A stretch of DNA of 64,000 nt, taken from a phage. The DNA lies in NCBI GenBank assembly GCA_018027755.1, contig GCA_018027755.1_4098.1; one strand, 5' to 3'. The notes beneath the pieces were generated by a model that made no database searches, was not told the origin of the DNA, and saw only the letters and a program-made list of their open reading frames with translations. Shown in pieces: positions 734 to 42,521 of this stretch; the first letter of the stretch is position 1, and each line of letters opens with the position of its first letter. The translations under genes and the position numbers were made by a program.

Positions 734-1105
734 ATGAATATAGATTTGAAAGGTGCAACACGAACTGTCATACTCATTGGGGAATATGCTATCAAGATTC
801 CAACCTTTAAAAGTTGGAAGCTATTCTTAACAGGGATGATAGCTAACCTCAATGAACGTTCGTGGATGCAGTACTCCAAGCGTAGTAATAGTGGTATCTG
901 CCCTACGTTGTGGTCATCATGTACTGGACTAGTAACTGTACAGAAACGTTGTAAGCCAGTACAACATAGGGGTTTATTTTGGGTGGAGTTGTGTGCTTTA
1001 GCATTGGATTCAGAGTTAAGTACTGACTTCTTCTATTCAGATGCGAAGCCAGAAAACTTTGGGTATCTGTGTGGTAAGTTGGTTAAACTTGATTATGGAG
1101 ATTAA
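734..1105 (+). CDS. small protein-kinase-like protein
   Basis: Motifs IGEYAIKIP, DAKPENFG, KLVKLDYG resemble kinase Lys/catalytic-loop/DFG-like segments; start placed at internal ATG of track ORF 686..1105. Confidence 0.4.
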   Translation: MNIDLKGATRTVILIGEYAIKIPTFKSWKLFLTGMIANLNERSWMQYSKRSNSGICPTLWSSCTGLVTVQKRCKPVQHRGLFWVELCALALDSELSTDFFYSDAKPENFGYLCGKLVKLDYGD

Positions 1106-1106
1106 T

Positions 1107-1376
1107 ATGTACGCACTGTATAATAAAGAAAAGAAACGATTTGCTAAGGTTGAAATTTCGATTGATACATTTGACATGTTGGAGTACTGTATTGTAACGG
1201 ACTTATATGCTAACTTGTATTACGTTCTTGATGACGTATCAGTACTGCAACGATTGCTTGAGAATTCCAAAAGTCAATGCCAGGACATCCATGATGGTTC
1301 ATCTTATGAAACACCTGAGTGTCCCCACGGGCAACTCGATGGGTATGAGATTGTTAAGTTGGGAATTGTTGAGTAA
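1107..1376 (+). CDS. hypothetical protein
   Basis: ATG 1107 overlaps upstream stop (TAATATG); track ORF 1041..1376 trimmed. Confidence 0.5.
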   Translation: MYALYNKEKKRFAKVEISIDTFDMLEYCIVTDLYANLYYVLDDVSVLQRLLENSKSQCQDIHDGSSYETPECPHGQLDGYEIVKLGIVE

Positions 1377-1382
1377 AAGGTA

Positions 1383-1411
1383 TTGACACCGTACTCATTT
1401 AACTGTATTAT
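1383..1411 (+). promoter_or_regulatory. sigma70-like promoter (TTGACA-N17-TATTAT, TG-extended)
   Basis: -35 at 1383-1388, -10 at 1406-1411, 30 bp upstream of ATG 1442. Confidence 0.5.
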
Positions 1412-1441
1412 GTATGTACACCAACTAATGAGGAATCGGAA

Positions 1442-1801
1442 ATGGCATCTTTATCTGAAATCACTGAACTGAATCCACTGGTAATTAGTACTGTTCAACG
1501 CACCAAGACGTTTTACTTCCGTCCTGCTGATGGATGGAAACGTGGAATGAATGGTGACTATCGAGTACTGGAAGATTCGCTCATCGAGCGTATCAACTCT
1601 GAACTACAGAAGTATGAAGGTGTTAAAGTTGTCCGTTCAACTTCTCGTTATTTTGAGTACTACATTGAGTCTTCAACTGTAAATGAAAACTCATCATTCT
1701 CGGTGGATAACACTGATATTCTTCGCAATGCAGTTGGTTTGCTATGCAACATTGCAGAAGAAATGGGATTAACTATCACCACAATGAGTGAGTTAGAATA
1801 G
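1442..1801 (+). CDS. hypothetical protein (119 aa)
   Basis: ORF track; GAGGAA RBS; promoter upstream. Confidence 0.6.
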   Translation: MASLSEITELNPLVISTVQRTKTFYFRPADGWKRGMNGDYRVLEDSLIERINSELQKYEGVKVVRSTSRYFEYYIESSTVNENSSFSVDNTDILRNAVGLLCNIAEEMGLTITTMSELE

Positions 1802-1805
1802 AATA

Positions 1806-1850
1806 AAAAAAGGGTTGACTTAGGTCGGCCCTTTTGCTATTATATCTATA
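1806..1850 (+). promoter_or_regulatory. composite element: A-run + hairpin overlapping TTGACT-N17-TATTAT promoter
   Basis: AGGGTTGAC..GTCGGCCCT stem between A-run and T-run; -35 1815-1820, -10 1838-1843; same element recurs at 35585, 39262, 42529, 45286. Confidence 0.5.
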
Positions 1851-1871
1851 TCGAAACGAAGGAGACAAACC

Positions 1872-2645
1872 ATGACCCGTCAAGAGAAAGCAATCCAAAT
1901 CGAAAAAAACTTCAATAGCATGATGGCTGCACTGGAATGCCTTCTTGATACACAAGCTAACTCTATCAACTCTCTGATCGTATCAGGTAAAGGTGGTGTT
2001 GGTAAAACTTATAACGTTGACCAACGGTTGCAGAAAGCTGATGATAACTTTGAAATCGACTACAAGAAAATCAGTGGTAAAGTAACTACTTTGGGTCTGT
2101 ACGAAGCACTGTATCGTTCACGTCATGCCGCATCAGTACTGTTACTTGATGACGTTGATATCTTCTCTGACGAGACTAATATTGATTTGCTTAAAGCTGT
2201 GTTGGATACGTCAGAGAAGCGTGTAGTTTCTTACGCGACTTCTGCTAAGTACCTGGAACAGCAGGGTATCCCTAAGCAGTTTGAATTCCGTGGTAAAGTA
2301 ATCTTTCTGACTAACAAAAACCTGTCACAGATTGCTAAAGGTAAAAGCAGCTTAGCACCACACATCGATGCACTGATCACTCGTAGTATCTTTGTTGACC
2401 TGCAACTGTTCACCAACGAAGAAGTGATGATTCACATTGAGAACATCATGAACAAAACTAACATCCTTGAAAACAATGGTGTTAACAAAAATGGTTGTAA
2501 AGCAATCCTGAATTGGATGCTGAACAACGAAGAACGTTTGCGTAGTCCATCACTGCGTATGCCAGTACTGATCGCTGGTTTGTATAATAAATTCCCATAC
2601 GATTGGGAATCAATGGCAGAGAATATGTTCCTTGAGAAAATTTAA
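1872..2645 (+). CDS. P-loop NTPase (deviant Walker A, ParA/MinD-like signature)
   Basis: SGKGGVGKTY Walker A and hydrophobic-LLLDDVD Walker B in translation; GGAGA RBS. Confidence 0.6.
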   Translation: MTRQEKAIQIEKNFNSMMAALECLLDTQANSINSLIVSGKGGVGKTYNVDQRLQKADDNFEIDYKKISGKVTTLGLYEALYRSRHAASVLLLDDVDIFSDETNIDLLKAVLDTSEKRVVSYATSAKYLEQQGIPKQFEFRGKVIFLTNKNLSQIAKGKSSLAPHIDALITRSIFVDLQLFTNEEVMIHIENIMNKTNILENNGVNKNGCKAILNWMLNNEERLRSPSLRMPVLIAGLYNKFPYDWESMAENMFLEKI

Positions 2646-2654
2646 TTACATGTA

Positions 2655-2683
2655 TTGACAGTACTACACTATGGTAGTACTAT
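2655..2683 (+). promoter_or_regulatory. sigma70-like promoter (TTGACA-N17-TACTAT)
   Basis: -35 2655-2660, -10 2678-2683; GGAG RBS then ATG 2713. Confidence 0.45.
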
Positions 2684-2712
2684 AACTTAATATTCACCAC
2701 CGGAGATACGAT

Positions 2713-3051
2713 ATGCTTGAGTTTTTTAATTCAGATACAATGATTAGTATTACTTTGATTTATCTGTTTGGTTTTTTCTTTTATCATGCACTGGTTGTAG
2801 TACTGTGGTATTTTAAAAAGAAAATTGTTTTTAAACTGTATCCAGTAAGGAATTCATCACTAGTTCTTTACACACTAGTTCAAGGTTTGTTTGCAATTGT
2901 TGGTCTTATGGCACACTTAATTTATTGTGCCAATCCTCACTTGAACTCAATCTCACAATATATTGTATTCTTTGGGTTGTTCATTTGGTTAGTTGTATAC
3001 TTAATCCATCTCATTATTCATGGTAGAGATAAAATTCGCGGAGACTTCTAA
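2713..3051 (+). CDS. small polytopic membrane protein, tandem family M
   Basis: ORF track; multiple hydrophobic segments; first of 7 abutting membrane ORFs. Confidence 0.6.
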   Translation: MLEFFNSDTMISITLIYLFGFFFYHALVVVLWYFKKKIVFKLYPVRNSSLVLYTLVQGLFAIVGLMAHLIYCANPHLNSISQYIVFFGLFIWLVVYLIHLIIHGRDKIRGDF

Positions 3052-3398
3052 TGTTTGAAGCTTATCTTGAGTTTTTAAGGAGTAGTTCAGTTGCACATTC
3101 ACTTGCAGGGATTATTCTAACAACTTATGTATCATTTTGGGTAGTTATGTTTCTAGGATGGTATTTTAAACGACAATTCTATAAACGTAATGGTGAAGAT
3201 TTTATGAATTCTGCCATTAATCAATCGTTGTTTGCATCAACATTGATTGCATGTATTGTAGCAACACTCACAGGAAAGGTACTACCAGCTTTTTCCGCAG
3301 TTTACGGCACACTTGGGATGATATGTTTAACTTTTATATTGACCATTAAAATTTGTTGTGTTATGATTGAACTTCGAAATAAGATACCGGAGGAATGA
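3051..3398 (+). CDS. small polytopic membrane protein, tandem family M
   Basis: ORF track; start overlaps upstream stop; hydrophobic segments. Confidence 0.6.
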   Translation: MFEAYLEFLRSSSVAHSLAGIILTTYVSFWVVMFLGWYFKRQFYKRNGEDFMNSAINQSLFASTLIACIVATLTGKVLPAFSAVYGTLGMICLTFILTIKICCVMIELRNKIPEE

Positions 3399-3733
3399 TG
3401 GAGTACTTTATTGATTTACTGCCGTGGTATATGAAAGTTAGTACTTTGTACTATATTATTAGTGCTGGATTCTACTTTCTGATGTGGTTCTTTAAACGAC
3501 CAATTTCAGTATTCATCGCTGATAACATGCTGCAATTAAAATTACACGCATGGTTTGGTATGGCGATGATTATGCCTATTATTCACTACTCAATGATTAG
3601 TAGAGGTTTCCGTTCTAATGGTGAACCAATTGTATTAGTATTCTATTGGGGTTCAACTATTGCATATGTAAGTTTGTTGTTGTTCCCAGTCGTTCATAAG
3701 TTACGTGCTAAAGTTCCTGATGCGAGGTACTAA
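3395..3733 (+). CDS. small polytopic membrane protein, tandem family M
   Basis: ORF track; ATGA overlap with upstream gene; hydrophobic segments. Confidence 0.6.
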   Translation: MMEYFIDLLPWYMKVSTLYYIISAGFYFLMWFFKRPISVFIADNMLQLKLHAWFGMAMIMPIIHYSMISRGFRSNGEPIVLVFYWGSTIAYVSLLLFPVVHKLRAKVPDARY

Positions 3734-4047
3734 TGGATATAGTAACATTGATTTACACGTTGTATTCATTCTATTTCATTATGTGTTGGGTTGGATTTTT
3801 ATTTGTACTCAAGATGTTTGATTATGTTGAAAAACAGATAAAAGAATTTTGTATTCCTTTTATCGGTTCAACCATTATTAGTGTTTCTTGTGTGTATTTT
3901 TTGGTTTTTGATCCACCAGATAACACTGCAATGATTGACTTGATGTTACTACCAACAACTGTTACTTTTTTATGTAGTCTGATGCCGCCGATTAGCCGTG
4001 GACTAACAGAATTTAGACGCAATCAAAAGCGTAAACGAGGGATGTAA
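3733..4047 (+). CDS. small polytopic membrane protein, tandem family M
   Basis: ORF track; C-terminus KRKRG shared with next gene. Confidence 0.6.
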   Translation: MDIVTLIYTLYSFYFIMCWVGFLFVLKMFDYVEKQIKEFCIPFIGSTIISVSCVYFLVFDPPDNTAMIDLMLLPTTVTFLCSLMPPISRGLTEFRRNQKRKRGM

Positions 4048-4415
4048 TGGAAATTGCTCTTATTATCTTAACTGCTATGCTGTTTATTAGTACTGTGGTT
4101 ATAATTGGTAAATTCTTTTGTGTATCATTTTTAGAAACGGTATACGATGAAATTGCTGATGATTATGAATTACAAGCCGGATTTTTCATTACGTATTGGC
4201 TTAGTTTATTTTGTCTAGTCATTGCTTGGATTTTACATATCTTTAAATGGGGTATGGTAGACGGTGATCCTATTATGGCAATTATTGTTCTAGTGTTTGG
4301 TATCCTTGGTGGTGCAGTGCATAATCTAATGGTTATCTGGCAAACTGTTCAATATGTTTTGGTTCCCTATTTCGAAAAGATGCACAGTACAATTAAAAAA
4401 CGTAAACGAGGTTAG
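4047..4415 (+). CDS. small polytopic membrane protein, tandem family M
   Basis: ORF track; C-terminus KKRKRG; hydrophobic segments. Confidence 0.6.
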   Translation: MEIALIILTAMLFISTVVIIGKFFCVSFLETVYDEIADDYELQAGFFITYWLSLFCLVIAWILHIFKWGMVDGDPIMAIIVLVFGILGGAVHNLMVIWQTVQYVLVPYFEKMHSTIKKRKRG

Positions 4416-4416
4416 T

Positions 4417-4779
4417 ATGAACGGGATAGAATTATCTTTCGTTGGTCAATTACTAGTAATGGCGTATACATTTATCTTCTCACTGAATGCATTCGTGTGC
4501 ATTGGGAAGTACTTCCATAAGCGACCATTATCAAATATATATGATGTAATCCAAAAGAGATATAGTCCAGCATATACTGTGTTGGGTACAGTATTCAATT
4601 TTGGTTTTATTGTATTAATAATTGGACTGTTCACATCCTCTTTGAATACAATAACCTTCGGTCTTATGATATGTTCATTGGTATTAGCCGTAATTATATG
4701 TTGTTTAGTACTGCACCTTGTGGTACTATTGTATATAAAGATCTCTGAAATCCACCAACGTTTGGGTATGAGGAAATAA
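4417..4779 (+). CDS. small polytopic membrane protein, tandem family M
   Basis: Track ORF 4354..4779 trimmed to ATG 4417 after CGAGG RBS. Confidence 0.55.
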   Translation: MNGIELSFVGQLLVMAYTFIFSLNAFVCIGKYFHKRPLSNIYDVIQKRYSPAYTVLGTVFNFGFIVLIIGLFTSSLNTITFGLMICSLVLAVIICCLVLHLVVLLYIKISEIHQRLGMRK

Positions 4780-4780
4780 T

Positions 4781-5152
4781 ATGAGTTACCGTGAGATATT
4801 TTCCATTATTTCAATTATTATGTTCAGTACTGGAACACTGGTATGGTTATTATACTTCTTCTGTATTAATCCAGTGTATAATATGTTATGTAATATTAAA
4901 TCAAGTGCCGGATATATCACTTTTATGGTCTTTATGGGATATTATTGTCTAAGCATTTTAGGTGTTGTTTTGGTTGTTATATTTGATGTGGGACCAAATA
5001 GTGATGGTATGGAAATACATGAATTAATAACCATGTTTGGATGTATGATACCAACAGCACTACTGTTTGTAGCTACTTGTAGTGGATTGATAAAATTATA
5101 TAATTATTTAAAATCCATTCATAATTCCATTCATAATAAGCGTATGTCATAA
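4781..5152 (+). CDS. small polytopic membrane protein, tandem family M
   Basis: ORF track; GAGGAA RBS; hydrophobic segments. Confidence 0.6.
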   Translation: MSYREIFSIISIIMFSTGTLVWLLYFFCINPVYNMLCNIKSSAGYITFMVFMGYYCLSILGVVLVVIFDVGPNSDGMEIHELITMFGCMIPTALLFVATCSGLIKLYNYLKSIHNSIHNKRMS

Positions 5153-5158
5153 TAAAAA

Positions 5159-5182
5159 ATCCAGTACTATTAAGTACTGGAT
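5159..5182 (+). other. perfect stem-loop ATCCAGTAC-N6-GTACTGGAT
   Basis: 9-bp inverted repeat built from two AGTACT hexamers between genes; no T-run. Confidence 0.35.
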
Positions 5183-5194
5183 GTATAAGGAGTT

Positions 5195-5857
5195 ATGATG
5201 AAATCAAAATTAGGTTTGTTTTATAAAAACTATTTTGTTAAACAACGTAAATTTATAAAAAAATATTTCTCTGGCGAGAAGTCTAGTCCTATAATCTTTA
5301 AAAGACCAAGTTATAATACTTACTTAGCTGGTGCTAAACAGTCTAAGAAATTTATTACTCTTTTACATAAAAACAAAATTAAAGCTTCTTATGTTGAAAC
5401 GAGAAGAAACTCATCAATAACTCCTGGTGATTTTATTGAGTACGGATGTTTCAATATTAAGTACAATGATAATACATACTTTATGGATATTGATTGTAAT
5501 ACATCCAATCTTTTTAACATTGTAGTAAATCCATTAAAACAATATAATGTTTATGGTGATTCTATTATCAAATTAATCAAAAACAAAGATAGCTTTGATT
5601 TTGAAATAAATGTTTTAGATGATAATTTTGACGAAGTACCAGTAAACCCTGAAATCTGTGATATTTTAAACAGTTTAAAAGGTAGTACCTACAATATATC
5701 ATCTGATTTAATGTTTCAGTACTCATTAATCCATAAAGATATTGAAAAGTATATTGAATGCTCCAGAATTTTGAATTTTCTCTATGATGAATTTAAAAAG
5801 AGTTCTAAAATAACTGCATACACTTTGTACAATATTCCTAAAATGGTGAATCTTTAA
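5195..5857 (+). CDS. hypothetical protein (220 aa), basic N-terminus
   Basis: ORF track; AAGGAG RBS. Confidence 0.6.
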   Translation: MMKSKLGLFYKNYFVKQRKFIKKYFSGEKSSPIIFKRPSYNTYLAGAKQSKKFITLLHKNKIKASYVETRRNSSITPGDFIEYGCFNIKYNDNTYFMDIDCNTSNLFNIVVNPLKQYNVYGDSIIKLIKNKDSFDFEINVLDDNFDEVPVNPEICDILNSLKGSTYNISSDLMFQYSLIHKDIEKYIECSRILNFLYDEFKKSSKITAYTLYNIPKMVNL

Positions 5858-6261
5858 CAAATACAGTACTGGCAACTCCACCGTCTGTAATATATTGTCC
5901 AGTACTGTAAATTTGTATACCATCGGTTAAGTAAGTTCTGTATAAAGTTGCTGTAACATATACGTTATTCATATTCATCTCTATTGGTAGTACACATTTG
6001 GTATAGGCCGACACATCTGTTTGTGTACCTATACCCAATTGACCTGCGTTATCGCCTGTGTTATTACCAGTTGCGTAAACACCCAATGAAGTTATAATAT
6101 GATTAGAAAAATATGAATAACCCAAACTCTTGAGATTCTCTACTGTACAACGTACCATCTGACATAAGGGCAAAAACTGTCGTATCAGATGAAGCTATTT
6201 TTGTAACAGAAGGTTGTATGTTCTTTTTTGATGATGTGATAATTCTTCGAAAGGGTAGCAT
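5838..6261 (-). pseudogene. decayed MLPF-leader RCC1-like paralog (frameshifted, truncated)
   Basis: ATG 6261 after GGAGG gives MLPFRRIITSS..DGTLYSRE then stop after about 53 codons; GQLGIG-containing continuation is in another frame (track ORF 5838..6173). Confidence 0.55.
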
Positions 6262-6353
6262 TGTATCCTCCAAATGTAAATCGTTATTATATTTAGGACA
6301 AAAAAATGCCAGTACAAGGCACTGGCATAAAATCTAAGCAGAAGGCATATCCT

Positions 6354-6464
6354 TCATCTTAATAAATGAAAATTGTGTACCAGTATTTGTGGTTCCAATT
6401 TCTTTATTTCAGGAAGAGTTGGTTTAATATTTCCGTACTTTAACATTCTTCCAAAAGGTAACAT
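6354..6464 (-). pseudogene. MLPF-leader stub (36 codons)
   Basis: Canonical cassette upstream; MLPFGRMLKYGNIKP.. terminates after 36 codons. Confidence 0.5.
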
Positions 6465-6539
6465 AAATCCCTCCTTTATTCATTATACTATATTTAATAC
6501 AAAAAAAAAGAAAAGCCAGTATCAAGTACTGGCCCTATA
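6465..6539 (-). promoter_or_regulatory. array cassette boundary (terminator hairpin + TATAAT + AAGGAGG)
   Basis: Minus-strand reading: GCCAGTA..TACTGGC hairpin, T-run, TATAGTATAATGAATAAAGGAGG, ATG. Confidence 0.55.
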
Positions 6540-7889
6540 TTATTGTAAAGGTATTTCAGTCAAGGTACTATATGTTGTGCCATTATACACACCACGCCAG
6601 TATAATTTACCTTCAGTACTAACCACTAATAATCCATATGTTGTAAACCCAAGAGTACCACCAACATACATAGCATCTTTGATTTTAATACCAATGTCTT
6701 CATATGTAAATGAAGCGACTGCTCCCGCTTGCCATGAAGGACTAGCATAGTAATCACTATAAACACCATGTGCTTTATATATTGATGTTGTTCCGGGTTC
6801 AAAAATTACAGTTCCACAGTAGTTCATTCGTATTTTGGTACTGGATGAAGTTGGTACATTTATACCTACATCATCTTTAATCCCTGTAGTTAGGACGTTA
6901 AAACCACCCGCTACACGGTTGACGTCATTCGCACCGATTAGAAACATACCAACGTTGTAGCCCATATAATACACACTACTTGTACCATTCCAGAAAGAAA
7001 AACCACCACCATTACCACAGCGATATAGTTGTGAATTTGAGCAGTACATCATGCCTTCGTTTGTTGCATCAAAATCATCTGCTGTTCCGATTACAGCCAC
7101 TGTAGTCCACGTTTTAATCACTTGGTTTGTACTAGCTGGTTTTTGTATACCATATCGTATATTATATCCCTTACCTACGATTGTACCATCTTCTAATTTG
7201 GCATAAAGTACAGGTCTATTACCAACAAAATACACATTATTATGTGACATGTCTATTGTGCATCTTAATGAAACTGCTTTTTGTGTCAATTGATTATCTT
7301 TAGTAAAAGAAGTAAAGTAGTAATCTGATGTGGAGTTGTTTATTAAACCTTGAATCGACAAACCCATATACCAGATTTCACCATTAGTGTTCAATGCTGC
7401 CAAAATACAACTATATTTTGAAGTGTATGCTGGGGTTAATGATGTTGCTGGACCTTTATCATATCCACCACAGAATACCATTTCCACAACTTCACCTACG
7501 TTAGAAAAATAAGAAGATACATTTATAAAACCATTTGTTATAAAAGGTGCTGTAGTTATACTTGAATGTGTGAATATTCCATTTGCATATACACCACAAA
7601 AATGATATGAACCATCATTATCTTTAACTATTATTCCATTTGATAGTAGCCAAAAATTGTTTACATTTTTTCGTACTAATTCAATTCCTGTACCATTGGT
7701 TGGTGTTATACCAAAAGAAACATATTTTGTTTGACCAATACCATATAAATTTCCATTTGATGCTAATATTGCACCAAACCAATTACCACCACCATTCCTA
7801 TCATGACCCATACCAATGGAGTCGAATTTCTTCACAGTAGAGGCTTCAACTTTATTTCCGTACTTAACCATTCTCGCAAAAGGTAACAT
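6540..7889 (-). CDS. MLPF-leader RCC1-like beta-propeller repeat protein (449 aa)
   Basis: ORF track; leader MLPFARMVKYGN; G/T/S/N/Y-rich with RCC1-like G-x-N-x-x-G-Q/E/K-L/F-G-x-G repeats. Confidence 0.75.
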   Translation of the reverse strand: MLPFARMVKYGNKVEASTVKKFDSIGMGHDRNGGGNWFGAILASNGNLYGIGQTKYVSFGITPTNGTGIELVRKNVNNFWLLSNGIIVKDNDGSYHFCGVYANGIFTHSSITTAPFITNGFINVSSYFSNVGEVVEMVFCGGYDKGPATSLTPAYTSKYSCILAALNTNGEIWYMGLSIQGLINNSTSDYYFTSFTKDNQLTQKAVSLRCTIDMSHNNVYFVGNRPVLYAKLEDGTIVGKGYNIRYGIQKPASTNQVIKTWTTVAVIGTADDFDATNEGMMYCSNSQLYRCGNGGGFSFWNGTSSVYYMGYNVGMFLIGANDVNRVAGGFNVLTTGIKDDVGINVPTSSSTKIRMNYCGTVIFEPGTTSIYKAHGVYSDYYASPSWQAGAVASFTYEDIGIKIKDAMYVGGTLGFTTYGLLVVSTEGKLYWRGVYNGTTYSTLTEIPLQ

Positions 7890-34695: not shown

Positions 34696-34700
34696 TTAAT

Positions 34701-35126: not shown

Positions 35127-35207
35127 TACTTGCAATTAGTTTTCAGTACTGTATAATAGTTTACATGAAGGGGAGAAATGATTCTCCCCAATAACAGGAG
35201 AAACAAA

Positions 35208-35360: not shown

Positions 35361-35446
35361 AATCATTAGCTTATTACAGTTCAGCGGTGATCGGTGCATT
35401 GATCGCGGCATTGTTAGTAACCTATCTATTCTTTATGGTGATTTAA
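35357..35446 (+). CDS. hydrophobic micro-protein (29 aa)
   Basis: ATGA overlap with upstream gene; MKSLAYYSSAVIGALIAALLVTYLFFMVI single TM-like helix. Confidence 0.35.
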   Translation: MKSLAYYSSAVIGALIAALLVTYLFFMVI

Positions 35447-35581
35447 ATGAATCCTAACGGTTTAATTTACAGTACTCCTAAAACGAAAGCAGATAAAGCG
35501 AAAGCACGTAAAGCGAAAGTAAAGGAGTACATTAAGCAAGGCATGACGCGAAAGGCGGCAGTACTGAAAGCTAAAAAATAA
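35447..35581 (+). CDS. basic micro-protein (44 aa)
   Basis: TAAATGA coupling; Lys/Ala-rich. Confidence 0.35.
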   Translation: MNPNGLIYSTPKTKADKAKARKAKVKEYIKQGMTRKAAVLKAKK

Positions 35582-35584
35582 ATG

Positions 35585-35625
35585 AAAAAAGTGGTTGACT
35601 TCGGTCAGCCATTTTGCTATTATAT
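35585..35625 (+). promoter_or_regulatory. composite element: A-run + hairpin overlapping TTGACT-N17-TATTAT promoter
   Basis: Same element as 1806; followed by motif-1 copy and a second promoter. Confidence 0.5.
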
Positions 35626-35647
35626 ATTCATTGAGAGATAGCTCACT

Positions 35648-35672
35648 AGCCCACCGGGTGCATAAGTGTATC
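35648..35672 (+). repeat. motif-1 copy
   Basis: AGCCCACCGGGTGCATAAGTGTATC. Confidence 0.5.
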
Positions 35673-35795
35673 TATTATATAAGTATTGAGTACTGAAAAC
35701 TATTTTTAAAAAGTACTTGCAAACTATCTCAATTGGCGTATAATGTTTTACATCGCAAGGGGAAACGGTTTCCCCTGGTAATAAGGAAACAAATC

Positions 35796-36137
35796 ATGAC
35801 TATCTCAATTGCTCAATCTAACTTTGAAAATGAAATCATCGCCCAGGCACTGCGTTTAAATGATGGTCGGGCCGAAATTAATTACGGTTTCAATTCAGGC
35901 GGTTGTGAAAACTATCAGTACTTTGTAACGGCTGATGGCGGTGTCCTGGGTATCAATACAGTTATTGTAAACATCCAAAAAATTAATTTCAATGATCCAG
36001 ACGATAGCCAGTTTTACATTGTAGGCGTAGACGTGAACTATGAGGATGACTCACTAACTGATGATCACACTGGCGAGCGGTTAGAAAGTGCATACGGTGA
36101 AGATGATTATCAGTCCGGTCCAGAAGATTTCGAATAA
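35796..36137 (+). CDS. hypothetical protein (113 aa), acidic C-terminus
   Basis: Track ORF trimmed to ATG 35796 after AAGGAAAC. Confidence 0.6.
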   Translation: MTISIAQSNFENEIIAQALRLNDGRAEINYGFNSGGCENYQYFVTADGGVLGINTVIVNIQKINFNDPDDSQFYIVGVDVNYEDDSLTDDHTGERLESAYGEDDYQSGPEDFE

Positions 36138-36233
36138 TATAAAAAAATAGTTTGACAATAGATTATAGTACTGTATAATAGTTTACATCAAGGGGAGAAA
36201 AACTTCTCCCCACTAACAGAGAGAGAAAACAAA

Positions 36234-36446
36234 ATGGCTAATATCCGGTCGAAATTAAAAAATGCAAAACAAGTTTTATTTTCAGATCATGAATACTTTA
36301 ATAAAGATATTACAGGAGTTACAAGTATCAAGGAAGTAAAAGAAAAAACCGGTGTTTTGTGTGATGTGCGATTAGTTGGGACATTTGGGAATAACGTGCT
36401 ATATCGCTGCGGTGATTACAATTTTACACTGACTATCATTAACTAA
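36234..36446 (+). CDS. hypothetical protein (70 aa)
   Basis: ORF track; promoter + leader hairpin upstream. Confidence 0.6.
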   Translation: MANIRSKLKNAKQVLFSDHEYFNKDITGVTSIKEVKEKTGVLCDVRLVGTFGNNVLYRCGDYNFTLTIIN

Positions 36447-36529
36447 AAATATTATCACAGTACTATTGACATAGTTTGATAGTACTGACATAATAACTTT
36501 TATCAACTACACTACTAAGGAATTAAAAA

Positions 36530-36709
36530 ATGGCTATCATCGCAAAAACTGAAATCGTTGGTCTGGATTCTATCATCATGACGTTTGAAGATCAAAAAGG
36601 TATGTATGTAGTTTCCTATGGTGATTATGTTCGGGAGTATGAAACGGTAGACGAAGCCTTTGAAAGTTATATTCGCCAGGTGAATAAAGCATACGACGAC
36701 TACCGCTAA
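36530..36709 (+). CDS. hypothetical protein (59 aa), paralog of 33383..33595
   Basis: Below track cutoff; MAIIAKTEIVGL..; same upstream promoter sequence. Confidence 0.5.
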   Translation: MAIIAKTEIVGLDSIIMTFEDQKGMYVVSYGDYVREYETVDEAFESYIRQVNKAYDDYR

Positions 36710-36810
36710 AATATATTACCAGTACTATTAAATCTATTGACAACGTTTGATAGTACTGTATAATAAGTTTTATAAACAGTAATTAACTTAACCTAAGAGA
36801 GAGAAACAAA

Positions 36811-36954
36811 ATGATCGCACTGGATTCATTCATCGACGCAGTACTGGCAAAAACTGGCGAGGATCTGACCGCAGAACAATACGCGATGATCGAGCAATGT
36901 CAGCAAAACGGTAAATCGGTGAAAGATACTGTTAAGATTATCCGCAAGATGTAA
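36811..36954 (+). CDS. hypothetical small protein (47 aa)
   Basis: Below track cutoff; AGAGAGAGAAAC leader then ATG. Confidence 0.4.
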   Translation: MIALDSFIDAVLAKTGEDLTAEQYAMIEQCQQNGKSVKDTVKIIRKM

Positions 36955-36960
36955 TATTAT

Positions 36961-36986
36961 AGCCCACTGGTTAACGCTGGTGGGCT
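36961..36986 (+). terminator. probable intrinsic terminator (weak T-tract)
   Basis: AGCCCAC-TGGTTAACGC-TGGTGGGCT hairpin; contains a GCTGGTGG octamer. Confidence 0.45.
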
Positions 36987-37059
36987 TTAATCATTTACCC
37001 TATACAATGCCAGTACTAAACCGTTTATCTCGTTAGAATGCGTTACAGGACGTTTAACA

Positions 37060-37257
37060 ATGATTAGCATGAAATCAGTACAAAAACAAATAGAAACATT
37101 ATCAAAAATTAAACGTAAACAGTACTCCTTAGAATATACAATCAATGGTAACTATCATCTAATGAAAGAAAATAATTTTATAGTCATTGATGAATCATTG
37201 CAAATCATTAGTATAGTACTGAAAGCATTAATCAATGACAGAAAAAAATTAAAATAA
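37060..37257 (+). CDS. hypothetical protein (65 aa)
   Basis: ORF track; AT-rich, weak RBS. Confidence 0.4.
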   Translation: MISMKSVQKQIETLSKIKRKQYSLEYTINGNYHLMKENNFIVIDESLQIISIVLKALINDRKKLK

Positions 37258-37317
37258 TCTATTGACAATATCATCCAGTACTGGCATAATACTTACATCA
37301 AGACGAGAACGTCACTA

Positions 37318-37342
37318 ACCCATAGGGTGCACAAATGTAACT
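37318..37342 (+). repeat. motif-1 copy (diverged)
   Basis: AACCCATAGGGTGCACAAATGTAAC. Confidence 0.4.
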
Positions 37343-37586
37343 ATATAATATCGTTCAATAAATGATCAAAAAAGTACTGGATCAATTTAACATAAGGAGT
37401 ATAATTCTGATCAATTCTTGATCAAAGGCAATATACGCAGTTGAATTTATATAGACAATACAAAGGCGTTACTATCCGTGGTAATGCTGGTGGATATGTA
37501 GTATCATATGGTTTGAATAAGATTAGCACTAGTAGTATTATTGTAGCATTACAGTACTATAGTATTTTTATAATGAGGTTAAAATA

Positions 37587-37844
37587 ATGGCAGTAGGATA
37601 CGCGAAAGACGGGGCCGAACAAGACGAGATTCACGCAGTGATTCAGGCCGCCGTTAACCACGCTAGAAAGCAAATTAACGCACAAAGAGAATCACTGGTA
37701 CATTGCCTCGACTGCGGCGATAAAATCCCTGAGAATCGACGCCAGGCCGTTATAGGGTGCATGTATTGTATTACTTGCCAGGAGGATCATGATAGTACTT
37801 TTAAAAGAGATCCGCGTAATTGTTGGCATAGATCTATGAGATAA
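37587..37844 (+). CDS. TraR/DksA-family C4 zinc-finger protein
   Basis: INAQRESLVHCLDCGDKIPENRR....CMYCITCQ matches TraR-type CxxC-N17-CxxC pattern. Confidence 0.65.
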   Translation: MAVGYAKDGAEQDEIHAVIQAAVNHARKQINAQRESLVHCLDCGDKIPENRRQAVIGCMYCITCQEDHDSTFKRDPRNCWHRSMR

Positions 37845-37907
37845 AAAGTATTGACAGTACTGAAAGATAGTGTATAATGTTTTATATCTTAACTGAGGAT
37901 AGTAATC

Positions 37908-38264
37908 ATGGGAATACAACATATCACGCGTACTACTGACAATGGAGAGATCACTGGTTATCAGGTACAGGGCAAAGTAGCACAATTGCAGTACTGGTTT
38001 GTTAAACGTGGAATCATTGCACCGGATCTTGATTATGACCGTGTAGCGTTTATTGATTCTCTTTATGTTGATCCTGATAGTCGGGGCAATGGTGAAGGTA
38101 ACGAATTAATGAATGCCTTTATTGATGCCGCCGGTGATTCAGATTGTATCATCTTAGAATGCGATACGGGAGAAGATAACGCCTTTAATCTTAAAGAATG
38201 GTACGAAGGTTTCGGATTCGAGGTATTGATAGATAGTGAATATCCTATCATGATTTTATCATAG
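37908..38264 (+). CDS. GNAT-family N-acetyltransferase-like protein
   Basis: IDSLYVDPDSRGNGEGNELM resembles GNAT acetyl-CoA motif (V-x-P-x-x-R-G-x-G); promoter upstream. Confidence 0.45.
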   Translation: MGIQHITRTTDNGEITGYQVQGKVAQLQYWFVKRGIIAPDLDYDRVAFIDSLYVDPDSRGNGEGNELMNAFIDAAGDSDCIILECDTGEDNAFNLKEWYEGFGFEVLIDSEYPIMILS

Positions 38265-38336
38265 TACTTGCATTTAGTTTTCAGTACTGTTATAGTACTT
38301 ACATCAAGGGGAAACGTCTTCCCCTACTAAGAGGAA

Positions 38337-38531
38337 ATGAAAATGGAAAACTTATCAAGTATTTTAGTACAAGATGATTTTGGCAATCCTGGTAGTGCTA
38401 TCATTGTTCGGGGTAATAAAGCAACGTTTGTTATTGCTGGTGGGCCAGTACAGCGTAGCATTAAAAATAATGCTGTTACCATTAATAATGTACGCTATCG
38501 CTTAGATAAAGAATTGATTCATAAACTTTAA
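38337..38531 (+). CDS. hypothetical protein (64 aa)
   Basis: ORF track; leader hairpin + AGAGGAAA RBS. Confidence 0.6.
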   Translation: MKMENLSSILVQDDFGNPGSAIIVRGNKATFVIAGGPVQRSIKNNAVTINNVRYRLDKELIHKL

Positions 38532-38615
38532 AAAGTATTTGACAATAGATTATAGTGCTGTATAATAAGTTACATGAAGGGGTGAAATGATTCTCCCCAC
38601 TAAGAGGAAAGAAAA

Positions 38616-38828
38616 ATGCAAGGTCAACTAATCGTTCGTAAATGGTCTGATACTAACGAAAAACCGTGGGATGTACAATACATCGGACCGGATGGGGTAT
38701 CACGTTATCAGCCTGGCGTAACGCATAGTACTGAGCAATTCGCAAACGCTCACCGCGAACGCCTGTTAGAATCCATGAAACAGGGATTCTGTGAAAAATT
38801 CATTCAAGATCATTGGCTGAAAGATTAA
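38616..38828 (+). CDS. hypothetical protein (70 aa)
   Basis: ORF track; leader hairpin + AGAGGAAA RBS. Confidence 0.6.
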   Translation: MQGQLIVRKWSDTNEKPWDVQYIGPDGVSRYQPGVTHSTEQFANAHRERLLESMKQGFCEKFIQDHWLKD

Positions 38829-38845
38829 TATAAGGAGTACAGCTT

Positions 38846-38938
38846 ATGCAAATGAATCCGATGATTATTGTTTTAGCTGTACTTATGATCATTCATGCAA
38901 TAGTAGAAGTATTAACGCAATCAGGAGTAATAAAATGA
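38846..38938 (+). CDS. hydrophobic micro-protein (30 aa)
   Basis: AAGGAG RBS; MQMNPMIIVLAVLMIIHAIVEVL.. Confidence 0.35.
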   Translation: MQMNPMIIVLAVLMIIHAIVEVLTQSGVIK

Positions 38939-39108
38939 TTCAAGTAGAATTATCAGTACTGAAAGATCTGTTTTATCGGTTAGGTACTACTGGCGAGTAT
39001 CCTAAAAGTGATACCGCAAAACTTTTTGTATCACTCGACTTATGGCAACGCGAACAATTAGTAATGTCCTGGCGTAAAGGTAAAGCAGATAGCGAGGTGA
39101 AAGCATGA
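38935..39108 (+). CDS. hypothetical small protein (57 aa)
   Basis: ATGA overlap with upstream micro-ORF. Confidence 0.4.
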   Translation: MIQVELSVLKDLFYRLGTTGEYPKSDTAKLFVSLDLWQREQLVMSWRKGKADSEVKA

Positions 39109-39254
39109 AAGAATTCTTATTCGAAGTAGTGTTTCAAGGTGTCGGTAGTAACCAACTGATTCGCTCAAGTGGTTACAATGTTAACCAGGCATGGAATAAC
39201 ATTAAACAAATGTACCCGAACGCTATCACCTATCGCAACCCGAAACAAGTTTAA
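39105..39254 (+). CDS. hypothetical small protein (49 aa)
   Basis: ATGA overlap; followed by composite terminator/promoter element. Confidence 0.4.
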   Translation: MKEFLFEVVFQGVGSNQLIRSSGYNVNQAWNNIKQMYPNAITYRNPKQV

Positions 39255-39261
39255 AAATAAT

Positions 39262-39303
39262 TGAAAAAGGGATTGACACCGGTCAGTCCCTTTGCTATTA
39301 TAT
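39262..39303 (+). promoter_or_regulatory. composite element: A-run + hairpin overlapping TTGACA-N17-TATTAT promoter
   Basis: AGGGATTGAC-ACCG-GTCAGTCCCT; -35 39273-39278, -10 39296-39301. Confidence 0.5.
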
Positions 39304-39320
39304 ACGCATAGAAACAAATC

Positions 39321-39345
39321 AGCCCACAGGGTGCATAAATGTATC
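39321..39345 (+). repeat. motif-1 copy
   Basis: AGCCCACAGGGTGCATAAATGTATC, followed by a GCTGGTGG octamer. Confidence 0.5.
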
Positions 39346-39429
39346 TATTGTTTGCTGGTGGCTAGTACTGAAAACTATTTTTAAAAAAGTACTTGCATTG
39401 TACTTAGAATCAAGTATAATGTTTTACAT

Positions 39430-39508
39430 CAGGACGGGGAACGAAACAAGTAACCCCGTTAAGTAGTCCAGGAGTAAGACATACGAAAAACTCCCCTGAT
39501 AAAATAGT
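39430..39508 (+). ncRNA. candidate about 80-nt leader/small RNA element, copy 2
   Basis: Near-identical to 28802..28881, again between tandem promoters. Confidence 0.35.
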
Positions 39509-39569
39509 TTGACAATAGAAATTAAACGAGTATAATACTTACATCAACCACTGATAAGGAAACATAAAA

Positions 39570-39845
39570 ATGCGGATTCTACTGACAGCTAACGAAATCG
39601 AACAAGTACTGACTACTAACCTGGAAGACTGGAAACGTGAAGCAGATATCCAGGCGGTTCAATGGCTTAACGATAAGTTAACGCCGGATGACTTAAGCAA
39701 GATTGTAGATCCTCAATTCTACGAAGATATTCACGACACCGCGTTAAGCGTCGAGGATGTACTTGATAAGCACTACATTGATACTGATTTACATGTTTAC
39801 GGTCGTAAAAACTTTATCACTATTCACGACATTTACAATACTTAA
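39570..39845 (+). CDS. hypothetical protein (91 aa)
   Basis: ORF track; AAGGAAAC RBS. Confidence 0.6.
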   Translation: MRILLTANEIEQVLTTNLEDWKREADIQAVQWLNDKLTPDDLSKIVDPQFYEDIHDTALSVEDVLDKHYIDTDLHVYGRKNFITIHDIYNT

Positions 39846-39932
39846 GTATTGACAAAGTATCTTAGTACTGTATAATAGTTTACATCAAGGCGGGGAAATG
39901 GTTCCCCTCCTAACTAAAAGAGAGAAATTAAA

Positions 39933-40115
39933 ATGGCTAAGTGCACTATCTGTAAGAAAGAAATCGTATTAGTTCCAAGTGCCCGTGAACGTGCCGCTCG
40001 GTTCGGTGGCAAAGCGTCAGACTATACAAAAATGTTTACTGCCCATGCAGATTGCCAGGTAGCAAAACGTTCACAAGAAAGCGTAGAATTAATGCGTAAA
40101 CTTTCCAAAAAATAA
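39933..40115 (+). CDS. small Cys-containing protein (60 aa)
   Basis: ORF track; MAKCTICKK...HADC; promoter + leader hairpin. Confidence 0.55.
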   Translation: MAKCTICKKEIVLVPSARERAARFGGKASDYTKMFTAHADCQVAKRSQESVELMRKLSKK

Positions 40116-40201
40116 GTATTGACAAAGTATCTTAGTACTGTATAATAGTTTACATCAAGTGAGGGGAAACGGTTCCCCTCCTAACAGAGAGAGAAATAAA
40201 A

Positions 40202-40525
40202 ATGGCTATGATCCTTACCCAGAAAGTGGAATTGAAAATTGTAACCTCCTTTGACATTAAAGTTAATCGCTGGACTGATCGGAACGGCAATACTTACCAC
40301 TCTTGCTACGTGTCTGCATTGATTGGTGATCGTTGGGAAGACCTGGGACACGAAACTTTTACATACGGTTACGGTACGCAAGGCGAATACACGGGCTTGG
40401 AGATCATTAAAGAAACCGTTATAGGTTTCAACCCGAAAGAAAAAGTTATTCACCGCATCGAAAAAGAGATTAACAAAGAAATAACAGTTCGCTACTACGA
40501 TGTAAAACGTAAGAAAGACATGTAA
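40202..40525 (+). CDS. hypothetical protein (107 aa), paralog of 33677..34021
   Basis: ORF track; C-terminal DVKRKKDM. Confidence 0.65.
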   Translation: MAMILTQKVELKIVTSFDIKVNRWTDRNGNTYHSCYVSALIGDRWEDLGHETFTYGYGTQGEYTGLEIIKETVIGFNPKEKVIHRIEKEINKEITVRYYDVKRKKDM

Positions 40526-40611
40526 TAGAATCCATTTAAAGTACTATTTGACATTACACAGATAGTACTTTATAATAGACTCTAACTTGTAGTACTAACT
40601 CAACTAATAGG

Positions 40612-41016
40612 ATGTATACCATGATTACTAAATTCTACGCTACCCGTGAAGCTGCCCGTATTGTTGCACGCGAGGAAGGAGCAGCATTTAAAGACATGGG
40701 AACGACAGCACCGAAAGGTCAACGCTGGGCCGTACAGTTCAAAGAAATCTCTGATATTGTGAATTCACCTGAGCCAGTACTGACAGCAGCAGAACTAAAA
40801 CGAGCGGATATGCTGGCGGCAATACTTGACGCTCAAGATGAATTTATCGCTGATTCTGATATCAAAGTACAGGTAAACCACACCGCATGGACTCACGCGG
40901 ATCACCTGGCAAACCTTAAGCGTCCAAGTGAACTGATTCGCAACCAGAAAGAGATCCGACACGACCGTAAGGGTAATCGTGTAACAGTATACAGTAAACG
41001 CCGCCAGGTTATCTAA
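40612..41016 (+). CDS. hypothetical protein (134 aa), paralog of 27927..28193
   Basis: ORF track; shared N- and C-terminal blocks with extra central insert. Confidence 0.6.
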   Translation: MYTMITKFYATREAARIVAREEGAAFKDMGTTAPKGQRWAVQFKEISDIVNSPEPVLTAAELKRADMLAAILDAQDEFIADSDIKVQVNHTAWTHADHLANLKRPSELIRNQKEIRHDRKGNRVTVYSKRRQVI

Positions 41017-41038
41017 TAACTTGCAGTACTAACAACAC

Positions 41039-41064
41039 GGCGGGATCAGTTCCCGCCTTTTTTA
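41039..41064 (+). terminator. intrinsic terminator
   Basis: GGCGGGA-TCAGT-TCCCGCC hairpin followed by TTTTTTA. Confidence 0.65.
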
Positions 41065-41077
41065 TAGGACAAACAAA

Positions 41078-41332
41078 ATGATTAAGGTTCAACTATATAA
41101 AGATAACATCTTACGGGTACACTATAAAGCACCGAAGAGAATCATCACAAAGGCCGTACAGCTTGCTAATGAGTTTATTAATGGTAACCTATTACCAAGG
41201 AAGTTAAGCAACGGGAAACTGCGTGTAATCGACGTGGACACTAACAACAGGATAGTAATCGAGAACACAGGAAAAATAAACCTTTATGAACACCAACAAT
41301 ATAATAAGAAAATAAAACTAATATCACGTTGA
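41078..41332 (+). CDS. hypothetical protein (84 aa)
   Basis: ORF track. Confidence 0.55.
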   Translation: MIKVQLYKDNILRVHYKAPKRIITKAVQLANEFINGNLLPRKLSNGKLRVIDVDTNNRIVIENTGKINLYEHQQYNKKIKLISR

Positions 41333-41385
41333 CAGTACTCAAATGTTTTAGTACTATGTACACATACCAACACGGGAGAAACAAA

Positions 41386-41604
41386 ATGAAATTATCTAAA
41401 ATCGAAAAAACAACTATTGATGTAGCAGTTAAGCACGGTTATACCTTTCGTAATGATTCACATTTTACCAATTTTCAACAAGGACAGAGAACTATTAAAA
41501 AACTAATTGACAAAGGCTTATTAGTTAAAGTAGATAACGGTAACGGTGTGGAGTATCAACCAACACAGGACGCATTTTATTTTAAGAAATATAATATTAT
41601 CTAA
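41386..41604 (+). CDS. hypothetical protein (72 aa)
   Basis: Track ORF trimmed to ATG 41386; TTGACA-N17-TACTAT promoter at about 41334. Confidence 0.55.
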   Translation: MKLSKIEKTTIDVAVKHGYTFRNDSHFTNFQQGQRTIKKLIDKGLLVKVDNGNGVEYQPTQDAFYFKKYNII

Positions 41605-41662
41605 TTGACAGTACTCAAATGTTTTAGTACTATATGTACATACCAACACGGGGAAAAACAAA

Positions 41663-41905
41663 ATGATTACTTTAGAAAAACGTATCAAAGAAACTACATC
41701 GCTGGTGGAATTGTTAACAGTACTCAAATGTAAAACAACACCATTCAGCACGCCGGACTTTATTAATATGGTTGATGTTAATGGTCGCTATCGTATCACG
41801 GTCGAACAAGGAGCGGCGAAAGTATTCAGTACTAAAAACACTAAGGAAGTGATCCACGCCGTTAATGTTAAAAAAGTAGTTGCCATTGATAGTAAAGTAC
41901 TGTAA
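41663..41905 (+). CDS. hypothetical protein (80 aa)
   Basis: ORF track; upstream region duplicates that of 41386 gene. Confidence 0.55.
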   Translation: MITLEKRIKETTSLVELLTVLKCKTTPFSTPDFINMVDVNGRYRITVEQGAAKVFSTKNTKEVIHAVNVKKVVAIDSKVL

Positions 41906-41936
41906 GATAGTTTCATTAACTCAAGGAGTAAATGCA

Positions 41937-42521
41937 ATGCGTAATTATACTAAATTCATCCGTACACTGTCAGAAATGGAAACCAACAAAGAGATCCTTT
42001 CAGCTTGTCGGTTAGCTGGCCTGGAGATCATCGGTGCTGGTTCTTCCCGTATAGTATTCGCTTTAAATGATCGGTTAGTGATTAAGGTCGCGAATTGTGA
42101 TGCGGGTGTCGAACAAAATGAAACTGAATGTAAGGTATGGAATTTTTTAGACTATGACCGCCCTCAGTTGAAACAGTACTTTGCAAAGGTGCATATGCAT
42201 TTATGCGATCCTGATAATATGTTTATCGTTATGGATCGGTTGAGTACTGCAAGCAAAGGCAGTGTGAAGCACGTTAACGCGTGCAATGAATTAAAGTACA
42301 ATATTAAACGTAATGCAATCGAACGCCAGCACCGCTTTGCTGATGCACTACAACACGTTGATGATACATTATCAACACTAACGATAAGAGATATCAGAAA
42401 ACAGAATATCGGCCAGGATCGTAATGGCCTTATTAAAGTACTTGATTACGGTTTAACCCGCAATATCTGGAATCAGTACTATAAAAAGCGTGATGTGGCA
42501 GCAAGTAAGGTAACACGATAA
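41937..42521 (+). CDS. protein-kinase-like protein (194 aa)
   Basis: Track ORF trimmed to ATG 41937 after AAGGAG; IIGAGSSRIVF (Gly loop), VIKV, IRDIRKQN, KVLDYG resemble kinase motifs. Confidence 0.45.
   Translation: MRNYTKFIRTLSEMETNKEILSACRLAGLEIIGAGSSRIVFALNDRLVIKVANCDAGVEQNETECKVWNFLDYDRPQLKQYFAKVHMHLCDPDNMFIVMDRLSTASKGSVKHVNACNELKYNIKRNAIERQHRFADALQHVDDTLSTLTIRDIRKQNIGQDRNGLIKVLDYGLTRNIWNQYYKKRDVAASKVTR

Follow-up and report, generated by a model that had tools for sequence, protein, structure and literature searches.

A phage-borne family of minimal protein-kinase-like proteins with a short form that ends at the D-Y-G motif

Two kinase-like proteins encoded in one phage sequence

We analyzed two kinase-like open reading frames (ORFs) in a 64,000-nt stretch of phage DNA (the window; GenBank assembly GCA_018027755.1, contig GCA_018027755.1_4098.1). 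ORF1 encodes a protein of 123 aa, the mini form, and ORF2 encodes a protein of 194 aa, the long form. In our assessment, the chances are slightly better than even that the two are diverged paralogs within a single family of minimal protein-kinase-like enzymes carried by phages (PHROG 4301). Their kinase-like fold and their homology are well supported. No third paralog was found in the window. The first 5 kb and the 40-45 kb region of the window are 90-97% identical to Escherichia coli Asteriusvirus jumbo phages (PBECO4, 121Q, G17, Sharanji and phAPEC6-like, with genomes of 348-386 kb). Judged by this identity, the source is an Asteriusvirus-type E. coli jumbo phage of the PBECO4/121Q/G17 group.

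An earlier note on this DNA had given the coordinates of both ORFs and read kinase motifs in their translations. We located both at the same positions on the plus strand (Table 1) and recovered the motifs: AIKIP (residues 19-23), DAKPEN (103-108) and LDYG (119-122) in ORF1, and IIGAGSSR (31-38), VIKVA (48-52), DIRKQN (152-157) and LDYG (169-172) in ORF2. Two features had gone unmentioned, namely a Gly-loop remnant in ORF1, K-G-A-T-R (G7/R10), and an alphaC-type glutamate (E41 in ORF1 and E64 in ORF2).

The PHROG 4301 profile (phrog_4301, function unknown) matched both ORF1 (E 3.5e-42, profile positions 40-167 of 225) and ORF2 (E 8.1e-42, positions 13-185 of 225). Pairwise BLASTP aligned the two proteins at E 0.013, with the alignment confined to the C-terminal motif region. 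Comparison of the mini-form profile (A3) with the long-form profile (A5) in hhalign covered 107 columns (E 2.2e-4) and placed all motifs in register. We searched 1.84 billion cluster representatives (clusters at 50% identity) exhaustively with a family profile, which gave 2115 proteins at E<=1e-3, 669 of them at E<=1e-10; among the matches listed, most were 110-135 aa long and terminated at D-Y-G. No annotated relatives were gained by a word-indexed profile search with 143 sequences.

Predicted fold and similarity to known kinases

Structure prediction with AlphaFold2 gave confident kinase-like models for ORF1 (predicted local distance difference test (pLDDT) score 91.8, predicted template modelling (pTM) score 0.82) and ORF2 (pLDDT 87.3, pTM 0.84). 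The ORF1 model runs through beta1-beta3, alphaC (28-43), beta4-beta5, an alphaE-type helix (79-92), the catalytic loop and beta7-beta8, where the chain ends. The ORF2 model has in addition two N-terminal helices, an alphaD-like insert with a helix between beta5 and alphaE, and a single, basic C-terminal helix (175-188), the 22 residues beyond D-Y-G forming this one helix. It is strongly supported by the models that both proteins consist of a kinase N-lobe (beta1-beta5 plus alphaC) and the first part of the C-lobe, comprising alphaE, the catalytic loop, beta7-beta8 and D-Y-G. Equally strongly supported is that both retain the residues for ATP/Mg binding and gamma-phosphate transfer: the Gly loop, the Lys-Glu pair, the Asp, the Asn and the DFG-type Asp.

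Profile comparison pointed the same way. In searches of all PDB sequences, family profiles matched eukaryotic-type protein kinases only (MELK, PKA, TTK and CK1, at E 0.002-0.02), apart from two weak tail matches (E 0.19 and 0.86) in the search with a larger profile. The motifs fall in the correct register: in the alignment to PKA, K72 and E91 face the family Lys and Glu, D166-N171 corresponds to D-x-K-P-E-N and D184-G186 to D-Y-G, and the ORF1 catalytic loop is aligned to HRDLKPEN of PKA, MELK and TTK. The fold layout, the beta3 Lys and alphaC Glu, the catalytic Asp...Asn and the Mg-binding Asp are those of the protein-kinase-like (PKL) superfamily. The kinase reading of the earlier note thus stood up in both the hidden Markov model and the structure-prediction comparison.

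Assignment to a curated Pfam, NCBIfam or PADLOC family was tried and rejected, as nothing exceeded threshold for ORF1, ORF2 or diverse relatives. ORF1 had no match in NCBIfam or PADLOC. ORF2 matched the kinase defence family PD-T4-6 weakly and below threshold, and ten diverse relatives gave sub-threshold matches only, to the kinase-like families ABC1 and FAM69.

Conservation of the catalytic residues

We profiled conservation in 168 single-module representatives (mutual identity <=50%) taken from the top matches of the exhaustive search and from two word-index searches. The most conserved columns were the motif residues. The pairs K21/K50, E41/E64 and D120/D170 were each conserved at 99%, and G34, N38 and G110 (ORF1 numbering) at 98%. 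Across 25 jointly aligned sequences, the columns without variation were the Gly-loop G, beta3 K, alphaC E, catalytic D and both D and G of the DFG-type motif, together with a family-specific R, V, G and N; the catalytic-loop N was present in >=90%.

The catalytic loop varies in an ordered manner. Position 103 is D in 79% and E in 20% of the representatives, and position 108 is N in 80% and S in 18%. The D-to-E and N-to-S changes fall together in the same protein in 30 sequences of one sub-clade (E-x-K-x-[DN]-S), and this co-occurrence suggests that the active site was remodelled rather than decayed. DAKPEN is invariant in the ORF1 subfamily, and DIRKQN of ORF2 is a looser match to D-x-K-P-x-N. 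Set beside GxGxxG, the Gly loop has two Gly in ORF2 (G-A-G-S-S-R) and one in ORF1 (K-G-A-T-R), with the family consensus G-x-[TS]-R-x-V. The ratio of nonsynonymous to synonymous polymorphism (pN/pS) against close relatives was 0.02-0.05 for ORF2 and ~0.3 for ORF1, on few substitutions. By this sequence measure, both genes are under purifying selection.

These patterns bear on whether the proteins catalyze anything. They could instead be pseudokinase-like modules that bind ATP or other nucleotides without transferring phosphate. Such modules might be ATPases or nucleotide sponges, or might act as decoys or inhibitors against host defence based on kinases or nucleotides. The mini form does resemble small anti-defence binders in being 110-135 aa long, widespread in phages, located in accessory regions (in one case with a Tad2-like neighbour) and without a conserved partner, and its Gly loop is degenerate and its alphaF, activation segment and substrate-binding lobe are absent. 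However, binding alone requires neither the catalytic Asp/Asn nor the DFG Asp, yet these are 79-99% conserved; the catalytic residues change jointly to another carboxylate/polar pair, and multi-module relatives keep the full set in every module. We regard a purely binding role as distinctly unlikely.

The mini form stops at D-Y-G

The chain ends 0-1 residue past the Gly of D-Y-G in 108 of the 168 representatives, and within <=5 residues in ~130. The mini form therefore comprises Hanks subdomains I-VII and nothing further. It lacks the activation segment, the APE motif and alphaF-alphaI (subdomains VIII-XI), and alphaD is missing as well. ORF1 is without the entire substrate-binding half of a normal kinase. 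Because this part of the C-lobe is missing, substrate recognition must differ from that of other kinases; the proteins might be promiscuous, might self-associate, or might have their site completed by a partner or by the substrate itself. The invariant Arg of the Gly loop and the Asn one turn ahead of the alphaC Glu are candidates for compensating contacts.

One way to account for the missing lobe is that the mini form is half of a split enzyme, whose C-lobe is supplied in trans by a second phage protein (the 89-aa product of 1107-1376, for example), by homo-oligomerisation or by a protein of the host. The ORF1 reading frame closes right at the DFG motif, and its stop codon is followed after 1 nt by the gene at 1107-1376. 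The Shigella effector OspG provides a precedent, as its activity needs bound E2~ubiquitin (PDB 4q5h), and relatives with 3-5 tandem long-form modules suggest that modules work side by side. On the other hand, a scan of IMG/VR with the mini-form alignment gave 31 loci, and neighbour clustering over these 31 viral loci revealed no gene conserved beside the mini form beyond close relatives. The 89-aa protein falls into a different PHROG, also of unknown function, and is unlinked in other lineages; on this and the clustering result we rejected a split kinase formed with the adjacent gene. We consider the split-enzyme explanation as a whole improbable.

The tandem-module relatives are five metagenomic proteins (P0038, P0084, P0085, P0086 and P0104) of 638-969 aa, each with 3-5 tandem long-form modules that all carry complete catalytic motifs. 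Such proteins are rare; one is encoded on a 185-kb contig and one was named 'Bud32' by JGI. A different fusion occurs in Pseudomonas phage OBP (2441-3262), where the mini-kinase domain is N-terminal in a 273-aa protein with a C-terminal extension of ~135 aa.

Distribution and genomic neighbourhood

We detected the mini form by tblastn in 119 isolated phage genomes. The hosts include Escherichia, Pseudomonas, Aeromonas, Erwinia, Salmonella, Klebsiella, Ralstonia and Serratia, and the phages comprise jumbo phages, T4-like phages (Dhakavirus, Tequatrovirus), N4-like Gamaleyavirus, T1-like Nouzillyvirus and ~58-kb Pseudomonas siphoviruses. The long form was found in 60 genomes, chiefly of enterobacterial jumbo phages. 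Fold relatives in BFVD came from Aeromonas, Ralstonia, Sphingobium, Pectobacterium, Pseudomonas and Klebsiella phages, and the named entries were nearly all "uncharacterized". A single pattern scan (DxKPEN[FY]GY) of bacterial and archaeal representative genomes gave no relative, and the narrowness of this pattern makes it weak evidence of absence from them.

Could the motifs nevertheless be chance matches or annotation artefacts in ORFs that are not functional genes? The lack of a Pfam or NCBIfam match and of an obvious Shine-Dalgarno sequence for ORF1 would fit such an explanation. It has next to no probability given hundreds of diverged homologs of the same length and with the same motifs, occurrence in isolated phage genomes at the counts given above, confident models and purifying selection, and we rejected it as already refuted by the conservation data.

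The mini-form genes occupy varied positions. One mini form, 45% identical, is carried by a lambdoid prophage of Salmonella enterica, with the lysis genes on one side and the gene for the Nu1 terminase subunit on the other; this lysis-terminase interval is a classic accessory-gene slot. Other positions are four genes upstream of a terminase, a group of small accessory genes with a Tad2-like gene in it, and a tail-gene module, and several of the neighbourhoods are known hyperplastic regions. ORF1-type genes may be free-standing accessory genes that move between unrelated phages.

Some of the neighbours are related to nucleic acid repair or processing. In Dhakavirus IME341, the mini form is directly upstream of an RNA ligase gene, and in Tequatrovirus PhiZZ30 it is one gene away from a tRNA cluster. 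In Pseudomonas PaMx25-like phages, the mini-form gene runs into the beginning of a denV with 36% identity, and in the Asteriusviruses G17, Sharanji, CRJP21 and 121Q denV is two genes downstream of ORF1. These adjacencies are few and heterogeneous, and we treat them as a lead and not a conclusion.

On this lead, the family could phosphorylate acceptors other than proteins, for instance RNA (tRNA included), DNA ends, nucleotides, signalling nucleotides or small molecules, with an open half-active-site that accommodates a bulky or non-peptide acceptor. The proteins are basic: the median isoelectric point is 9.1 in the mini form and 9.4 in the long form, whose C-terminal tails are basic as well. 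Against this, the D-x-K-P-E-N loop is, to our knowledge, the Ser/Thr protein-kinase signature and absent from APH, choline-kinase, Rio and Bud32 enzymes. Moreover, the helical subdomain with which APH-type enzymes bind substrate is missing, the neighbourhoods differ across lineages with several being hyperplastic, and comparisons of the ORFs and their relatives with Pfam, NCBIfam and PADLOC gave no sequence-level link to ArkI or APH. We regard non-protein substrates as unlikely.

Two local observations concern these loci. In IME341 (NC_055742), the homolog at 3501-3845 is annotated as a 54-aa fragment (3681-3845); tblastn aligns residues 7-123, and the homolog ends 1 nt ahead of the RNA ligase gene. 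When the window at ~1380-1440 is compared with G17 1591-2500, denV (pyrimidine-dimer glycosylase) and a small neighbouring ORF are absent from the window.

Expression context of ORF2

Orthologs of ORF2 lie inside annotated direct terminal repeats in vB_Ec-M-J (1-21525) and in Klebsiella phage fENko-Kae01 (1-19736; 39% identity), so that several complete records carry two copies. By co-linearity with vB_Ec-M-J and G17, the ~21.5-kb Asteriusvirus repeat corresponds to ~25.2-46.8 kb of the window, which therefore spans a physical genome end as placed in other records.

The region around ORF2 is rich in plus-strand sigma-70-type promoters, including four perfect 12/12 matches near the gene. An exact 29-nt promoter duplicate, TTGACAGTACTCAAATGTTTTAGTACTAT, occurs at 41329-41357 and 41605-41633, and the two copies head consecutive small genes with near-identical 5' leaders. 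A 35-nt hairpin element, AAGGGATTGACTCCGGTCAGTCCCTTTGCTATTAT, has five plus-strand copies in the window, where 0 are expected by chance; one follows ORF2 at 42534-42568 (Table 1) and the others are at 1809-1843, 35589-35623, 39267-39301 and 45290-45324. It forms a GC-rich hairpin with a -35 TTGAC in the 5' arm and a -10 TATTAT just past the stem, and looks like a combined terminator/promoter cassette between early genes. The promoter-dense, terminal-repeat setting fits early transcription by the host polymerase. From this position we infer that ORF2 is probably expressed very early and acts on host, possibly defence, proteins.

Proposed function

We propose that ORF1 and ORF2 are Mg-ATP phosphotransferases, a reading suggested by the conservation of their catalytic residues. 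Protein Ser/Thr would be the most likely acceptor, because the mini form has the D-x-K-P-E-N loop and because active minimal kinases provide a precedent. Lacking an activation segment and a substrate lobe, the enzymes may be promiscuous, or may be completed or activated by a partner or substrate in an OspG-like manner. Host or defence targets are suggested by the gene position of ORF2 and by analogy with the T7 kinase. The earlier note had proposed that very small atypical kinases phosphorylate host proteins in takeover or anti-defence. Its kinase-like structure is borne out by our analyses; phosphorylation of host proteins for either end is plausible by analogy.

A stronger version of the proposal is that the ~120-aa mini form is an autonomous active kinase, the smallest with a protein-kinase fold, working with subdomains I-VII alone and without alphaF. 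Self-association or the substrate might complete its site, and it could serve phages of many families as a portable, promiscuous weapon against host proteins or defence systems in the manner of the T7 kinase. We advance this version tentatively and think it rather less likely to be right than wrong.

Several observations count against minimal kinase activity. The sequence likeness to known kinases is marginal, with PDB profile matches no better than the E 0.002-0.02 given above; ORF2 scored 17.9 bits (E 0.002) against Pfam Pkinase (PF00069), for which the gathering cut-off is 31.7, and ORF1 had no Pfam match at E<=10. The models of both proteins were judged at the level of the fold. The Gly-rich loop is down to one Gly and a family-specific invariant Arg. 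In all well-studied kinases, alphaF (subdomain IX) anchors the hydrophobic spines, and ORF1, which lacks it, would have to be stable and active without this anchor. Finally, mini-form genes reside in the lysis-terminase interval, in a tail module, beside RNA ligase and beside denV; such late, structural or prophage sites are not consistently early and argue against one simple takeover role.

If the proposal holds, the catalytic half of a kinase works without the alphaF-centred C-lobe, with a bearing on the evolution of the fold and on its minimisation by design. With at least 669 clusters (50% identity, E<=1e-10) across jumbo, T4-like, N4-like, T1-like and lambdoid phages, the family would be a large addition to the few phage kinases known, and would be timely after the finding that the T7 kinase acts broadly in anti-defence. 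An inactive binder or a nucleic-acid kinase would be an informative outcome too. Neither Pfam nor NCBIfam offers a model for the family, and its members are hypothetical almost everywhere, so its recognition would improve phage annotation directly.

Gene coordinates and other features of the window

The features of both genes are collected in Table 1. ORF1 is preceded by an 83-aa hydrophobic ORF, with 11 nt between the stop codon of this ORF and the ORF1 start. No clear Shine-Dalgarno sequence was seen in the sequence read at the ORF1 start.

Table 1 Coordinates of ORF1, ORF2 and associated features in the window
Feature	Position	Strand	Remarks
ORF1, mini kinase-like protein, 123 aa	734..1105	+	ATG 734, TAA 1103-1105
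ORF1 Gly-loop remnant G7-A-T-R10	752..763	+	G7 98%, R10 98%
ORF1 K21, beta3 (VAIK-type) lysine	794..796	+	99%; aligned to PKA K72
ORF1 E41, alphaC glutamate	854..856	+	99%; aligned to PKA E91; predicted helix 28-43
ORF1 catalytic loop D103-A-K-P-E-N108, Hanks VIb, Ser/Thr type DxKPEN	1040..1057	+	
ORF1 D120-Y-G122, DFG equivalent	1091..1099	+	D120 99%, Y121 90%; then only D123 and stop
Sigma-70-type promoter, TTGACA-17 nt-TACTAT	41605..41633	+	Upstream of two-gene unit 41663-41905 and ORF2
Shine-Dalgarno AAGGAG of ORF2	41923..41928	+	Sequence reading
ORF2, long form, 194 aa	41937..42521	+	ATG 41937, TAA 42519-42521
ORF2 Gly-rich loop G33-A-G-S-S-R38	42033..42050	+	Long-form alignments
ORF2 K50, beta3 lysine	42084..42086	+	Invariant in alignments
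ORF2 E64, alphaC glutamate	42126..42128	+	Invariant; predicted helix 55-73
ORF2 catalytic loop D152-I-R-K-Q-N157	42390..42407	+	D invariant, N >=90%
ORF2 D170-Y-G172, DFG equivalent	42444..42452	+	Invariant
Predicted hairpin downstream of ORF2, terminator-like and promoter-like	42533..42568	+	One of five copies

Within the early region of the terminal repeat, three genes upstream of ORF2, an 84-aa ORF (41078-41332, plus strand) gave an above-threshold match (E 4.6e-11) to the ParE_like toxin domain of Pfam. Near the start of the window, the ORF at 1872-2645 (plus strand, 257 aa) has a Walker A motif, GKGGVGKT, a weak AAA_16 match and membership in phrog_1250 (unknown function). Its counterpart in CRJP21 is labelled 'regulator of chromosome condensation', which looks like a mis-annotation. 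In CRJP21 and G17, the AAA-like gene is followed by about five consecutive ORFs of 104-115 aa, several of which carry the same label in CRJP21. The first ORF of this run corresponds to 2713-3051 in the window and is clearly hydrophobic.

Comparison with known kinases

The closest parallels to the truncation of the mini form are minimal bacterial effectors, namely OspG and NleH1/2, type III effectors of Shigella and of enteropathogenic and enterohaemorrhagic E. coli (EPEC/EHEC), and HopBF1. OspG/NleH have been described as a minimal kinase fold without subdomains VIII-XI (PMC12756638), and by this definition truncation after subdomain VII is common to OspG, NleH, HopBF1 and the mini form. The crystallised chains measure 169 residues for OspG and 176 for HopBF1. 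An active mini form would set a new lower size limit for the protein-kinase fold, at ~110-125 aa versus 169-176 residues. DgkA of E. coli, with 121 aa per subunit, has been termed the 'smallest known kinase' (PMC4703834). It matches the mini form in size, but its fold, an integral-membrane trimer, is unrelated, and it serves as a size benchmark only.

The archaeal RNA kinase ArkI/Ark1 (AQ578 family), Rio kinases and Bud32 are also among the nearest known systems; ArkI retains subdomains IX and XI (PMC9095486). Unlike Hanks-type Ser/Thr kinases (PF00069; PKA, MELK, TTK, PknB), both ORFs fall below the gathering score, lack subdomains VIII-XI and have a reduced Gly loop.

Among phage proteins, the T7 kinase gp0.7 (T7K) is an early kinase whose promiscuous phosphorylation disarms many defence systems (PMC13645617), and a T7K homolog is also present in Asteriusviruses (PMC11895373, PMC13645617). 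T7K has DPV in place of DFG and a C-terminal DNA-binding/shut-off domain, whereas ORF1 and ORF2 have D-Y-G and no such domain. We considered and rejected the possibility that ORF1 or ORF2 is the jumbo-phage T7K homolog. In Sharanji, that homolog is WNN14432.1, the orthologs of our two ORFs are WNN14351.1 and WNN14422.1, and the DFG motif differs. Going by the accession numbers, WNN14432.1 should be encoded ~10 genes upstream of WNN14422.1, the ORF1 ortholog, at a place beyond the window.

ORF2 orthologs carry kinase labels in several records: "protein kinase domain-containing protein" (ph0011), "serine/threonine-protein kinase PRP4" (fEgEco12), "PknA" (Turkey3), "protein kinase" (K64-1) and "putative protein kinase" (fENko-Kae01). 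In the Sharanji paper (PMC11895373), WNN14351.1, the ORF2 ortholog, is mentioned as "another protein kinase ... function is unknown". The records inspected for ORF1 orthologs label them "hypothetical", and a distant 163-aa relative in Erwinia phage AH04 is labelled "serine/threonine kinase". Literature searches on PHROG 4301, minimal kinases and phage kinases yielded no description of the family. Annotation already recognises the long form. The mini form, a widespread variant of the kinase fold with an unusual truncation, has gone unrecognised.

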